A stretch of 64,000 nucleotides of DNA, from NCBI RefSeq assembly GCF_003334305.1, contig NZ_QOWS01000001.1. One strand, 5' to 3'. The translations under genes were made by a program, and so were the position numbers. This document shows, in pieces, positions 1 through 47,782 of the stretch. Numbering within the stretch: the stretch's first letter is position 1; each line of letters begins with the position of its first letter. The DNA comes from Escherichia coli (GTDB lineage: Bacteria; Pseudomonadota; Gammaproteobacteria; Enterobacterales; Enterobacteriaceae). The notes below the pieces were generated by a model. The model had not been told where the DNA came from. It was given only the letters and a program-made list of their open reading frames with translations, and did no database searches.

Positions 1-510
1 CGCAACGTGGTGTTAACACACAATGGTCGTGAAGAACGCATTTCTTTGCAGGCGCTGATGCAAAATGGCGACCTCAATCAGAACCGACTGCTTTACCCCG
101 GCGATATTCTCTATGTGCCGCGTAATGATGATCTGAAAGTATTTGTGATGGGTGAAGTGAAGAAACAGAGCACCCTGAAAATGGACTTTAGCGGCATGAC
201 CCTGACTGAAGCTCTGGGCAATGCCGAAGGTATCGACATGACCACCTCCAACGCCAGCGGCATCTTTGTCATTCGTCCGCTGAAAGGCGAGGGTGGGCGT
301 AACGGCAAGATTGCCAATATCTACCAGCTGGATATGTCCGATGCGACGTCGCTGGTGATGGCGACAGAATTCCGCCTGCAACCTTATGACGTGGTGTATG
401 TCACCACCGCCCCGGTTTCCCGCTGGAACCGTCTGATCAATCAGTTGCTGCCAACTATTAGCGGTGTCCGTTACATGACGGATACAGCCAGCGACATTCA
501 TAACTGGTAA
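1..510 (+). CDS. wza: Wza outer-membrane polysaccharide export lipoprotein, C-terminal part (5' end cut by window edge)
   Basis: ORF track 7..510 is in frame 1 and open to position 1; protein recognised as Wza C-terminus; immediately followed by wzb-wzc. Confidence 0.88.
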
Positions 511-515
511 TCGTC

Positions 516-959
516 ATGTTTAACAACATCTTAGTTGTCTGTGTCGGCAATATTTGCCGTTCCCCGACGGCGGAACGCTTACTGCAACGTTATCACCCGG
601 AACTGAAAGTGGAGTCCGCTGGACTCGGCGCGCTGGTCGGTAAGGGCGCAGATCCTACCGCTATCAGCGTCGCCGCAGAACATCAACTGTCTCTGGAAGG
701 CCACTGTGCACGACAAATCAGCCGTCGCCTGTGTCGCAACTATGACCTGATTTTGACCATGGAAAAGCGCCATATCCAACGCTTATGCGAGATGGCACCG
801 GAGATGCGCGGCAAAGTGATGCTGTTTGGTCACTGGGATAACGAATGTGAAATCCCCGATCCGTATCGCAAAAGCCGGGAAACGTTTGCAGCGGTGTACA
901 CATTACTTGAACGGTCTGCCCGCCAGTGGGCGCAGGCATTGAACGCAGAGCAGGTATAA
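516..959 (+). CDS. wzb: Low-molecular-weight protein-tyrosine phosphatase
   Basis: 147 aa; N-terminal CVGNICRSP (CX5R P-loop) motif; position between wza and wzc. Confidence 0.95.
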   Translation: MFNNILVVCVGNICRSPTAERLLQRYHPELKVESAGLGALVGKGADPTAISVAAEHQLSLEGHCARQISRRLCRNYDLILTMEKRHIQRLCEMAPEMRGKVMLFGHWDNECEIPDPYRKSRETFAAVYTLLERSARQWAQALNAEQV

Positions 960-961
960 GA

Positions 962-45448: not shown

Positions 45449-45499
45449 AAATATCTCTCTTGTATTTTTTGCCTTTGAATACAAGAGGGGTTAGATAAT

Positions 45500-46657
45500 G
45501 TGTCATTTATTATGAAAATTATTTTTGCTACTGAGCCAATTAAATACCCATTAACGGGCATCGGTCGGTATTCCCTGGAGCTGGTTAAGCGGCTGGCGGT
45601 CGCCCGCGAAATTGAAGAATTAAAGCTATTTCACGGTGCGTCGTTTATAGAACAGATCCCTTTGGTGGAGAATAAAAGCGATACCAAAGCCAGCAATCAT
45701 GGTCGTCTGTCGGCGTTTCTACGCCGACAGACGCTGTTGATTGAGGCTTATCGCTTGCTGCATCCGCGGCGCCAGGCGTGGGCATTGCGCGACTATAAGG
45801 ATTATATCTACCATGGCCCCAATTTTTATCTGCCGCATAAACTGGAACGCGCCGTGACCACGTTTCATGACATATCCATTTTTACCTGCCCGGAATATCA
45901 TCCAAAAGATCGGGTTCGCTATATGGAGAAGTCCCTGCATGAGAGTCTGGATTCGGCAAAGCTGATCCTGACCGTTTCTGATTTCTCGCGCAGTGAAATT
46001 ATCCGCTTGTTCAACTATCCGGAGGAGCGGATCGTAACCACCAAGCTAGCCTGCAGCAGTGACTATATCCCACGCAGCCCGGCAGAGTGTCTGCCGGTAC
46101 TGCAGAAATATCAGCTGGCGTGGCAGGCCTACGCGCTATATATCGGCACTATGGAGCCACGTAAAAATATCCGAGGCCTGCTGCATGCCTATCAGCTGCT
46201 ACCGATGGAGATCCGCATGCGCTATCCGCTAATCCTTAGCGGCTATCGCGGCTGGGAAGACGATGTGCTGTGGCAGTTAGTCGAGCTCGGTACTCGGGAA
46301 GGCTGGATCCGTTACCTCGGATATGTTCCGGATGAAGACCTGCCGTATCTGTACGCAGCGGCCAGAGTCTTTGTTTATCCCTCCTTCTACGAGGGATTCG
46401 GTTTACCTATTCTTGAAGCGATGTCTTGCGGTGTGCCGGTAGTATGCTCCAATGTCACCTCTTTGCCTGAGGTTGTTGGCGATGCCGGCCTCGTTGCCGA
46501 TCCTAATGATATAGACGCGATTAGCGCGCAAATTTTGCAGAGCCTGCAAGATGATAGCTGGCGGGAAATCGCCACCGCGCGCGGTCTTGCTCAGGCGAAA
46601 CAGTTTTCGTGGGAGAACTGTGCGACACAGACCATTAACGCCTATAAATTACTCTAA
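45500..46657 (+). CDS. wbdB: Mannosyltransferase (GT4)
   Basis: GT4 motif EGFGLPILEAMSCGVPVV; GTG at 45500 after AAGAGGGG, alternative ATG at 45512. Confidence 0.8.
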   Translation: MSFIMKIIFATEPIKYPLTGIGRYSLELVKRLAVAREIEELKLFHGASFIEQIPLVENKSDTKASNHGRLSAFLRRQTLLIEAYRLLHPRRQAWALRDYKDYIYHGPNFYLPHKLERAVTTFHDISIFTCPEYHPKDRVRYMEKSLHESLDSAKLILTVSDFSRSEIIRLFNYPEERIVTTKLACSSDYIPRSPAECLPVLQKYQLAWQAYALYIGTMEPRKNIRGLLHAYQLLPMEIRMRYPLILSGYRGWEDDVLWQLVELGTREGWIRYLGYVPDEDLPYLYAAARVFVYPSFYEGFGLPILEAMSCGVPVVCSNVTSLPEVVGDAGLVADPNDIDAISAQILQSLQDDSWREIATARGLAQAKQFSWENCATQTINAYKLL

Positions 46658-46666
46658 GGGTGTCAG

Positions 46667-47782
46667 TTGAGAGTTCTACACGTCTATAAGACTTACTATC
46701 CCGATACCTACGGCGGTATTGAGCAGGTAATTTATCAGCTAAGTCAGGGCTGCGCCCGCCGGGGAATCGCAGCCGATGTTTTCACTTTTAGCCCGGACAA
46801 AGATACAGGTCCTGTCGCTTACGAAGATCATCGGGTCATTTATAATAAACAGCTTTTTGAAATTGCCTCCACGCCGTTTTCGCTGAAAGCGTTAAAGCGT
46901 TTTAAGCTGATTAAAGATGACTACGATATCATCAACTACCATTTTCCGTTTCCCTTTATGGATATGCTGCATCTTTCGGCGCGGCCTGACGCCAGGACTG
47001 TGGTGACCTATCACTCTGATATAGTGAAACAAAAACGGTTAATGAAGCTGTACCAGCCGCTGCAGGAGCGATTTCTCAGCGGCGTAGATTGCATCGTTGC
47101 CTCGTCGCCCAATTATGTGGCTTCCAGCCAGACCCTGAAAAAATATCTGGATAAAACGGTGGTGATCCCGTTTGGTCTGGAACAGCAGGACGTGCAGCAC
47201 GATCCGCAGAGGGTCGCGCACTGGCGGGAAACTGTCGGCGATAAGTTCTTTCTCTTCGTCGGCACTTTCCGCTACTACAAAGGGCTGCATATTCTGATGG
47301 ATGCCGCTGAGCGTAGCCGACTGCCAGTGGTGGTTGTAGGGGGCGGGCCGCTGGAATCGGAAGTGCGGCGTGAAGCGCAGCAGCGCGGGCTGAGCAATGT
47401 GATGTTTACCGGCATGCTCAACGACGAAGATAAGTACATTCTCTTCCAGCTCTGCCGGGGCGTGGTATTCCCCTCGCATCTGCGCTCTGAGGCGTTTGGT
47501 ATTACGTTATTGGAAGGCGCACGCTTCGCAAGGCCACTGATCTCTTGTGAGATTGGTACAGGTACCTCTTTCATTAACCAGGACAAAGTGAGTGGTTGCG
47601 TGATTCCGCCGAATGATAGCCAGGCGCTGGTGGAGGCGATGAATGAGCTCTGGAATAACGAGGAAACCTCCAACCGCTATGGCGAAAACTCGCGTCGTCG
47701 TTTTGAAGAGATGTTTACTGCCGACCATATGATTGACGCCTATGTCAATCTCTACACTACATTGCTGGAAAGCAAATCCTGA
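46667..47782 (+). CDS. wbdC: Mannosyltransferase (GT4)
   Basis: 371 aa; apparent TTG start at 46667 (stop codon TAA three codons upstream in frame, AAGGG RBS). Confidence 0.8.
   Translation: MRVLHVYKTYYPDTYGGIEQVIYQLSQGCARRGIAADVFTFSPDKDTGPVAYEDHRVIYNKQLFEIASTPFSLKALKRFKLIKDDYDIINYHFPFPFMDMLHLSARPDARTVVTYHSDIVKQKRLMKLYQPLQERFLSGVDCIVASSPNYVASSQTLKKYLDKTVVIPFGLEQQDVQHDPQRVAHWRETVGDKFFLFVGTFRYYKGLHILMDAAERSRLPVVVVGGGPLESEVRREAQQRGLSNVMFTGMLNDEDKYILFQLCRGVVFPSHLRSEAFGITLLEGARFARPLISCEIGTGTSFINQDKVSGCVIPPNDSQALVEAMNELWNNEETSNRYGENSRRRFEEMFTADHMIDAYVNLYTTLLESKS

Follow-up and report, generated by a model that had tools for sequence, protein, structure and literature searches.

The his-linked gene layout considered here was described in 1997 for an Escherichia coli O8:K40 strain (Amor and Whitfield, Mol Microbiol 26:145, as cited by Liu et al. 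2020, PMC7685785), O8:K40 being the prototype of the group IB, now group 4, K antigens. DebRoy (2016) noted that the wzx/wzy genes of O8 are directed to capsule formation (PMC4732683), and Ingle et al. (2016) detected O8 wzm/wzt alongside Gp6 wzx/wzy, Gp6 corresponding to O46/O134 (PMC4379981), and also O8 wzm/wzt with O104 wzx/wzy (PMC5343136). The O104/K9 pair is a precedent for such combinations (Kogan, Jann and Jann 1992, as cited in PMC7685785). A group 4 capsule requires the gfcABCDE-etp-etk (g4c) export operon (PMC4368438), and group 1 strains have a wzi-wza-wzb-wzc-wbaP capsule locus in place of colanic acid (PMC6128206). Already established, too, are this architecture, with a likely origin related to Klebsiella, and the dual O and K role that Wzx/Wzy polymers have in O8/O9 strains. 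Our search of the literature for a paper naming Gp6, O46, O134 and Og8 together found none.

General Features of the Region

The window, the whole 64-kb stretch of DNA analysed here, is a his-linked polysaccharide region in which all genes from wza to wbdC lie on the + strand, based on the list of open reading frames (ORFs) and the RefSeq annotation of strain TUM1887. It is very probably a chromosomal region typical of O8 strains of E. coli and holds three gene clusters, each independent and intact, side by side. Along the window these are the colanic acid cluster (1-22189), a Wzx/Wzy cluster between galF and gnd (24786-30498) and, after gnd, ugd and wzzB, the O8 polymannan cluster (35702-47782), followed by hisIE. 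Between positions 25 and 30 kb the GC content is 0.28-0.31; it reaches 0.51-0.56 where the colanic acid genes lie and 0.58-0.59 in manC/manB of the O8 cluster. Across the full 64 kb, TUM1887 and the window are collinear and differ by 12 SNPs, which introduce no stop codon. We observed directly which genes are present, that they are intact, how they are ordered, their regulatory elements and their occurrence in other genomes, and the sequence offers no contradiction to the identification at gene level.

The preliminary description of this DNA had reported three co-directional clusters, which the ORF list and the TUM1887 annotation both recover, and had called them complete export systems. Three separate inner-membrane translocation systems are indeed encoded (WzxC, Wzx and Wzm/Wzt), and completeness holds for biosynthesis and assembly. 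It does not hold for export in the full sense, since wza is cut by the window start and both of the other clusters need wecA and waaL, encoded elsewhere. The galF-gnd cluster provides the flippase and polymerase steps only and, for a capsular form, additionally needs gfcABCDE-etp-etk. Because the galF-gnd and O8 clusters depend on genes elsewhere, the window comprises three complete biosynthesis and assembly gene clusters, not three self-contained export machines. The region is real but ordinary, already known, and contains no new biology.

Colanic Acid Cluster

The colanic acid (M antigen) gene set is present as wza-wzb-wzc, wcaA-F, gmd, fcl, gmm, wcaI, cpsB, cpsG, wcaJ, wzxC and wcaK-M, and is intact except for the 5' part of wza, which lies beyond the window edge. 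Only the last 510 nt (1..510) of this outer-membrane polysaccharide export lipoprotein gene fall inside the window, its full length in TUM1887 being 1140 nt. The export machinery continues with the tyrosine phosphatase gene wzb (516-959) and the autokinase co-polymerase gene wzc (962-3124). The biosynthesis genes wcaA to wcaM (3302..22189) are all intact according to the ORF list, annotation and sequence comparison, and include the polymerase gene wcaD (5821-7038), cpsB/cpsG (12179-15178), the initiating transferase gene wcaJ (15233-16627) and the flippase gene wzxC (16629-18107). WcaJ would start the colanic acid repeat unit on undecaprenyl phosphate, WzxC would flip it, WcaD would polymerize it and Wza/Wzb/Wzc would export the product.

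The galF-gnd Cluster Is an O46/O134-Type Wzx/Wzy Cluster

Between wcaM and galF (23585..24478) lies a Gnu/Gne-type epimerase gene (22347..23342), annotated as an Und-PP-GlcNAc 4-epimerase, although its NCBIfam matches are to generic SDR epimerases only. Downstream of galF is a + strand JUMPstart element at 24737..24775 (Rfam RF01707, 56.7 bits vs. a gathering score of 35), which contains the ops octamer GGCGGTAG at 24764-24771 and precedes the first galF-gnd cluster gene by 15 nt. The cluster comprises six genes. A TupA-like ATP-grasp amidoligase (24786..25631; Pfam PF14305, E=1e-31) is followed by wzx, encoding an intact 433-aa O-unit flippase of the O46/O134 family identical in protein sequence to that of NCTC11121 (25633..26934), and by a GT2 glycosyltransferase supported by annotation, NCBIfam and comparison with NCTC11121 (26936..27841). 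Next come wzy, encoding an intact 379-aa O46/O134-family O-antigen polymerase (27838..28977), a Core-2/I-branching (GT14-like) glycosyltransferase (28934..29767; Pfam PF02485 Branch domain, E=9e-26) and a second GT2 glycosyltransferase (29770..30498), the best NCBIfam match of which is TuaG-like and under the model cutoff. The annotated genes gnd (30617..32023) and ugd (32272..33438), the latter for a UDP-glucose 6-dehydrogenase supplying UDP-GlcA, follow, and then wzzB (33584..34561; NCBIfam NF012015, 594.7 bits vs. a cutoff of 267), the chain-length regulator for a Wzy-dependent polymer. The cluster has no wza, wzc or wzi of its own and coexists with colanic acid.

Sequence comparison identifies this as the known, intact six-gene O46/O134 (Gp6) O-antigen cluster, the assignment to Gp6 being made through annotated genomes and database entries. 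Over 6.3 kb the cluster has 97.4-100% nucleotide identity to 16 genomes annotated as O46/O134 family, and 95.9% to one more. Eight complete genomes with both this and the O8 cluster match it at 99.7-100% identity, and genomes having it as their sole O-antigen cluster, with hisIE directly after wzz, match it at 99.7% and 97.4%. The six ORFs have the same lengths as in these sole-cluster genomes and show 0-2 amino acid differences from NCTC11121. The window proteins match exactly the "O46/O134 family" flippase and polymerase entries of PGAP, names that come from RefSeq genome annotation and not from NCBIfam HMMs; an NCBIfam HMM scan left wzx, wzy, the ATP-grasp protein, the GT14-like protein and a 94-aa ORF without a specific model. 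The flippase also has a UniProt entry, A0A0A8J8K4, "Putative O-antigen transporter". In O46, wzx carries a 2-bp deletion according to Iguchi (2014), and an intact 3' end of the gene would speak for the O134-like allele. The O46/O134 structure paper, cited in PMC7685785, names D-glucuronoyl-D-allothreonine in its title, and a gene content of ugd plus a TupA-like ATP-grasp ligase is consistent with such a product. The ligase would join GlcA to the amino acid, which in O46/O134 is D-allothreonine.

The O8 Polymannan Cluster

The segment that follows wzzB begins with a decayed remnant of the 3' end of hisI and its downstream sequence (34709..34862, - strand), recognized by 82% nucleotide identity to the hisIE 3' region of NCTC11121 and by tblastn against HisIE amino acids 158-202; the annotation of other O8 genomes lists it as a partial pseudogene. 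A divergent JUMPstart-like element (35588..35624, + strand) scores 20.7 bits with Rfam RF01707 (E=0.03 in 321 nt), short of the gathering score of 35; it includes an exact ops octamer at 35613-35620, approximately 80 nt upstream of manC. The segment ends at the functional hisIE copy (47821..48429, - strand), as placed by annotation and comparison with NCTC11121.

Between these edges are second copies of the GDP-mannose pathway genes, manC (35702-37117; TIGR01479, 741 bits) and manB/rfbK (37141-38517; NF011943, 853 bits), both above cutoff and with 62% and 75% amino acid identity to cpsB and cpsG, respectively. The ABC transporter permease and ATPase genes, wzm (38519-39313) and wzt (39313-40527), are nucleotide-identical to those of IAI1, supported by annotation and HMM matches and named "O8 family" by PGAP. 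The product of wbdD (40527..41804) has 425 aa with methyltransferase matches only, the role of chain terminator being taken from PMC7685785, and wbdA (41807..45448) encodes a 1213-aa multi-module polymerizing mannosyltransferase with GT4 HMM matches in separate regions of the protein; both agree with the O8 type expected from PMC7685785. The adaptor mannosyltransferase genes wbdB (45512-46657) and wbdC (46667-47782) complete the set, and these two, like wbdA, were assigned from annotation, comparison with IAI1 and PMC7685785.

Based on these comparisons we identify the gnd-his cluster as the E. coli O8 ABC-transporter-dependent O-polysaccharide cluster. The genes manC-manB-wzm-wzt-wbdD-wbdA-wbdB-wbdC sit between gnd/ugd/wzz and hisI, the location given in PMC7685785. 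Across the eight genes there are four nucleotide and two amino acid differences from IAI1, which we take to be an O8 strain, leaving six proteins identical. At a coverage of at least 80%, the O8 cluster is present in 276 of 5426 complete genomes.

Predicted Surface Polymers

The enzymology, the co-expression of the clusters and the K-antigen form of the galF-gnd polymer are drawn here from established knowledge of these systems. WecA, encoded elsewhere, would prime the galF-gnd polymer, and the three glycosyltransferases would build the unit with UDP-GlcA from Ugd, the ATP-grasp ligase amidating GlcA with an amino acid. Wzx would then flip the unit, Wzy polymerize it and WzzB set the chain length. 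In an O8 background the polymer is expected to take the form of a group 4 (K_LPS) K antigen, with WaaL ligating one part to lipid A-core and GfcABCDE-Etp-Etk exporting another; the operon for this export system lies outside the window and in TUM1887 is intact, without the IS1 insertion of K-12. For the O8 polymannan, ManC and ManB would make GDP-mannose, WbdC and WbdB would build the adaptor on WecA-primed Und-PP-GlcNAc, and WbdA would polymerize the chain, which WbdD would methyl-cap before export by Wzm/Wzt and ligation by WaaL.

An O8 strain with a group 4 K antigen, the reading put forward in the preliminary description, is genetically supported: the O8 cluster is nearly that of IAI1, the Gp6 cluster is intact, colanic acid is kept and there is no wzi or group 1 locus, an arrangement associated with O8/O9 strains whose K antigen is of group 4, the O-antigen type. 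It is also possible, although we suggest this only tentatively, that the O46/O134-type polymer (GlcA amidated with D-allothreonine) is expressed in this O8 lineage as a group 4 K antigen to which no named K type has ever been tied. A polymer known as an O antigen would in that case also be a K antigen, either unassigned or mis-assigned, and cross-reaction with O46/O134 sera would be expected of the O8 strains in this lineage.

The value of these observations is mainly practical. Such genomes yield two O-type calls, O8 and O46/O134, in in silico serotyping based on wzx/wzy and wzm/wzt, and the earlier caution that serotype is not predictable from galF-gnd alone agrees with Ingle et al. (2016; PMC5343136). 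For vaccine, phage-receptor and surveillance work, such a strain may have on its surface two WecA-primed polymers in addition to colanic acid.

Alternative Explanations

Expression is not readable from sequence, so the galF-gnd cluster might be intact but silent or irrelevant, the strain being simply O8 without a K antigen from this locus; one database record, covering a fragment of the ATP-grasp protein, bears the label "Escherichia coli O8:H21", indicating that such isolates are at least labelled O8. We regard this as unlikely given the six intact ORFs, which differ by so few residues from those of strains having only this O-antigen cluster, the canonical JUMPstart/ops immediately upstream, and the intact ugd and wzzB, the latter of use only for a Wzy-dependent polymer. 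That near-complete identity has been kept in the eight O8-background genomes, from different hosts, also speaks against decay. The preliminary description had raised the prospect of a cryptic or frameshifted galF-gnd cluster; pseudogenization of either variable cluster is rejected, as the ORFs are intact relative to NCTC11121 and IAI1 and neither cluster contains a frameshift. The converse, that the O8 cluster is a silent passenger and the serotype O46 or O134, would fit the O46/O134 call obtained by wzx/wzy-based typing of the galF-gnd cluster alone, and in silico typers report both types (PMC5343136). With all eight O8 genes intact, six of their proteins identical to IAI1 and an ops-containing leader upstream, however, this is decidedly improbable.

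Two further explanations, both bordering on the inconceivable, concern the structure of the region. Nothing was found in favor of an assembly artefact joining two strains or replicons, a concern also voiced in the preliminary description, and misassembly is excluded by eight independently assembled complete chromosomes with both clusters in the same order together with the collinearity of TUM1887. Moreover, the hisI remnant marks a genuine ancient junction common to other O8 genomes. Homologues of Wza, Wzb and Wzc are known from both group 1 capsule and colanic acid loci, and wza-wzb-wzc could on that ground be assigned to the former. We rejected a group 1 locus (wzi-wza-wzb-wzc-wbaP downstream of galF) because the genes after wzc are wcaA-wcaM, with wcaJ, wzxC and wcaD among them, each carrying a colanic acid equivalog annotation. 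The position of galF also matches that in colanic acid strains, since it comes after wcaM instead of preceding wzi (PMC6128206).

Comparison with Known Systems

The O46/O134 (Gp6) strains NCTC11121, NCTC9966 and FDAARGOS_1372 carry the same six-gene cluster at galF-gnd, with 97.4-99.7% nucleotide identity and equal ORF lengths. Unlike in the window, hisIE comes directly after wzzB, without an O8 cluster, and the Wzx/Wzy polymer is therefore their only O antigen.

All five of the other O8-cluster genomes inspected for layout (IAI1, 19KM2415N, 600468, 05-3629 and A23) have the three-cluster arrangement and share with the window the hisI remnant, the 94-aa ORF and, almost unchanged, the O8 cluster. 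The earlier suggestion that the surface chemistry of the strain is non-standard was accordingly overstated, the layout being the norm as judged from the literature and from 13 of the 276 O8-cluster genomes, a non-random set taken from the best matches. What differs is the content of galF-gnd: IAI1 has a pyruvylated-type cluster there, and among the remaining four it is O32-family in two, O133-family in one and, in another, an unnamed cluster with UDP-GlcNAc 2-epimerase (wecB) and WbuC-family genes.

Relative to O8:K40, the serotype-specific Wzx/Wzy cluster of the window is of the O46/O134 type; K40, too, contains GlcA amidated with an amino acid, in its case serine. O104/K9 resembles our reading of the window in that a single Wzx/Wzy polymer serves some strains as O antigen and is a K antigen where an O8/O9 cluster is present, but the polymer and gene cluster are different. 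The O9a:K30 strain E69 likewise has an O8/O9-family ABC-transporter cluster next to his and a second his-linked polysaccharide cluster. Its arrangement is that of group 1, in which the capsule locus replaces colanic acid, whereas the window keeps colanic acid and its second cluster is without its own wza/wzc.

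Gene Content of the Region

The complete genome of TUM1887 (NZ_CP128963.1, 1869260-1933259) is collinear with the window and differs from it at 12 of 64,000 positions, so that its RefSeq annotation could be transferred directly; none of the SNPs creates a stop codon. On the plus strand, the window opens with the last 510 nt of wza, which is cut at the window start, followed by wzb, wzc and the colanic acid cluster (wcaA-F, gmd, fcl, gmm, wcaI, cpsB, cpsG, wcaJ, wzxC and wcaK-M), which extends to 22189. Between wcaM and galF (23585-24478) lies a gene for a Gnu/Gne-type epimerase (22347-23342; annotation, Und-PP-GlcNAc 4-epimerase), and beyond galF come six genes (24786-30498) in the order TupA-like ATP-grasp ligase, wzx, GT2 glycosyltransferase, wzy, Core-2/I-branching-type glycosyltransferase and second GT2. 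These are followed, still on the plus strand, by gnd, ugd, wzzB and the gnd-his cluster manC, manB, wzm, wzt, wbdD, wbdA, wbdB and wbdC (35702-47782), with hisIE and the remaining his operon 3' of it on the minus strand. The sequence holds three clusters, all intact, each having an inner-membrane translocation system of its own (WzxC, Wzx and Wzm/Wzt), and the gene content given in the preliminary description is borne out by the ORF map and base composition.

GDP-mannose genes are present in duplicate (12179-15178 and 35702-38517), with 62% amino acid identity between cpsB and the second manC and 75% between cpsG and the second manB. The GC content of the second copies is 58-59%, as opposed to 28-31% in the galF-gnd cluster, indicating side-by-side segments of three compositionally distinct origins. 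The cpsB-cpsG intergenic region matches the algC RNA motif at 13754-13803 on the plus strand (Rfam RF02929, 77.3 bits), and the Rfam scan of the window reported no match upstream of the second manB. The His leader (Rfam, 131.6 bits; 54898-55021, minus strand), the adjoining yefM-yoeB toxin-antitoxin pair (~55330-55832, plus strand) and the STnc240 sRNA between yeeY and plaP (68.2 bits; 57760-57834, plus strand) are ordinary flanking features.

Assignment of the galF-gnd and gnd-his Clusters

The gnd-his segment (34900-47800) was matched at a coverage of at least 80% in 276 of 5426 complete E. coli genomes, and the O8 cluster is found in about 5% of them. Its wzm and wzt are annotated as O8 family, and the eight coding sequences differ by only 4 nt and 2 amino acids from those of IAI1, which we take to be an O8 strain. 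Gene sizes and NCBIfam domain hits of wbdD and wbdA agree with what Liu et al. (2020) describe for the O8 type, in which WbdD is methyltransferase-only and WbdA is a large multi-module protein (PMC7685785).

Just 3' of wzzB (34709-34862, minus strand) lies a second, decayed hisI 3' end (compared with 47824 onward), having 82% nucleotide identity to the NCTC11121 hisIE 3' region, with HisIE residues 158-202 still detectable at 58% identity. The O8 segment (~34863-47823) is therefore flanked by remnant and functional hisI ends, which looks like a scar of the recombination that introduced the cluster; other O8 genomes carry the same remnant, labeled there as a partial pseudogene. Between the remnant and manC is a 94-amino-acid hypothetical ORF (35144-35428, plus strand) without an NCBIfam match, the position of which is kept in all O8-cluster genomes inspected (IAI1, 19KM2415N, 600468, 05-3629, A23 and TUM1887).

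Full-length matches to the galF-gnd segment (24400-30700) were found in 17 of the 5426 genomes, with identities of 97.3-100% in 16 and 95.9% in SCU-485; the same proportion (16 of 17) have wzx and wzy named "O46/O134 family" in RefSeq. In SCU-485 (NZ_CP053245.1), wzx is frameshifted and labeled a pseudogene and wzy has no name, the cluster (63055-68385) being annotated with several frameshifts and split ORFs in the wzx, wzy, ATP-grasp and glycosyltransferase genes, reflecting either real decay or sequencing error. Exact copies of the window's cluster proteins occur on roughly 300-750 public contigs per protein; among the flippase entries are one named "O46/O134 family O-antigen flippase" and the UniProt "Putative O-antigen transporter" A0A0A8J8K4. 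O46 and O134 constitute group Gp6 of Iguchi et al. (2014; PMC4379981), and the title of Perepelov et al. (2015), as cited in PMC7685785, places D-glucuronoyl-D-allothreonine in both antigens. The TupA-like ligase matches Pfam PF14305 and, judging from gene content, ugd together with this ligase would be compatible with such a product.

The preliminary description allowed that the galF-gnd cluster might be cryptic or inactivated. All six ORFs match their counterparts in NCTC11121 and FDAARGOS_1372 in length, with 0-2 and 3-12 amino acid differences, respectively. In both genomes, as in NCTC9966, A13 and 20Y000092, hisIE lies directly 3' of wzzB, making the O46/O134-type cluster the sole O-antigen cluster of NCTC11121 and FDAARGOS_1372, and likewise it is the sole one in the other three. 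With ORF lengths kept and no signs of decay in the window, we reject inactivation. Misassembly of the two variable clusters is excluded by eight independent complete chromosomes carrying both in the same arrangement (STEC005, TUM1887, DETEC-E601, strain 41, A7, A28, FCI51 and H15).

Regulation and Proposed Export Routes

A canonical JUMPstart (24737-24775; Rfam RF01707, 56.7 bits against a gathering score of 35) has its ops octamer 15 nt 5' of the first galF-gnd gene. A second exact octamer (35613-35620) is situated ~80 nt 5' of the O8 manC, inside a divergent JUMPstart-like element (35588-35624) scoring 20.7 bits, below the gathering score. The terminator scan listed terminator-like hairpins 3' of gnd and of ugd, and a GC-rich inverted repeat with a T run, missing from the scan list, is visible just 3' of wzzB. 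Based on these elements and the known role of ops, the two variable clusters look like separate RfaH-dependent operons.

From established knowledge of the three pathways, colanic acid would be made via WcaJ, WzxC, WcaD and Wza-Wzc. The O46/O134-type unit would be started by WecA, flipped by Wzx and polymerized by Wzy under WzzB control, part of the polymer being ligated to lipid A-core (K_LPS) and part leaving as a high-molecular-weight group 4 capsule via GfcABCDE-Etp-Etk. WbdC, WbdB and WbdA would build the O8 mannan on WecA-primed Und-PP-GlcNAc, with capping by WbdD and export by Wzm/Wzt (PMC7685785). A group 4 capsule draws on the same O-unit synthesis genes but also requires the g4c operon (PMC4368438). 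This operon is not part of the window; in TUM1887 (2959091-2966805) all seven genes, gfcABCDE-etp-etk, are annotated as intact, and the 441-bp cspH-gfcA spacer lacks IS1, in contrast to K-12 MG1655, which has IS1D 5' of gfcA. Production of both polymers is a prediction from the genes.

Comparison with Known Systems

Five further O8-cluster genomes, a non-random sample taken from the best matches, all have the order wcaM, galF, Wzx/Wzy-type cluster, gnd, ugd, wzzB, hisI remnant, 94-amino-acid ORF and O8 cluster, with differing galF-gnd clusters: one carrying a pyruvyl transferase in IAI1, O32-family in 19KM2415N and 600468, O133-family in A23, and in 05-3629 an unnamed cluster with UDP-GlcNAc 2-epimerase (wecB) and a WbuC-family gene. 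Among the five, only IAI1 has a Gnu/Gne-like gene between wcaM and galF, which are directly adjacent in the others; the gene type is also present in the window, NCTC11121 and FDAARGOS_1372.

The O46/O134-type polymer may correspond to a named K antigen, for example one related to K40, in which GlcA is amidated with serine. The presence of the wca genes and the position of galF 3' of wcaM rule out a group 1 capsule locus (contrast PMC6128206).

The location of O8/O9 clusters between gnd and hisI was noted by Liu et al. (2020; PMC7685785), citing Amor and Whitfield (1997), and Ingle et al. (2016; PMC5343136) reported isolates with O8 wzm/wzt and O8, O104 or Gp6 wzx/wzy, the last being the exact combination in the window. 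This literature, together with DebRoy et al. (2016; PMC4732683), according to whom O8 carries wzx/wzy genes dedicated to capsule formation, agrees with the five-genome sample. The arrangement first noted is correct, its interpretation as an O8/O9-type strain with a group 4 (K_LPS) antigen is supported at the gene level, and in every tested respect the region is of known kinds: O8, Gp6 and colanic acid clusters in a group 4-type layout, an arrangement first characterized in 1997.
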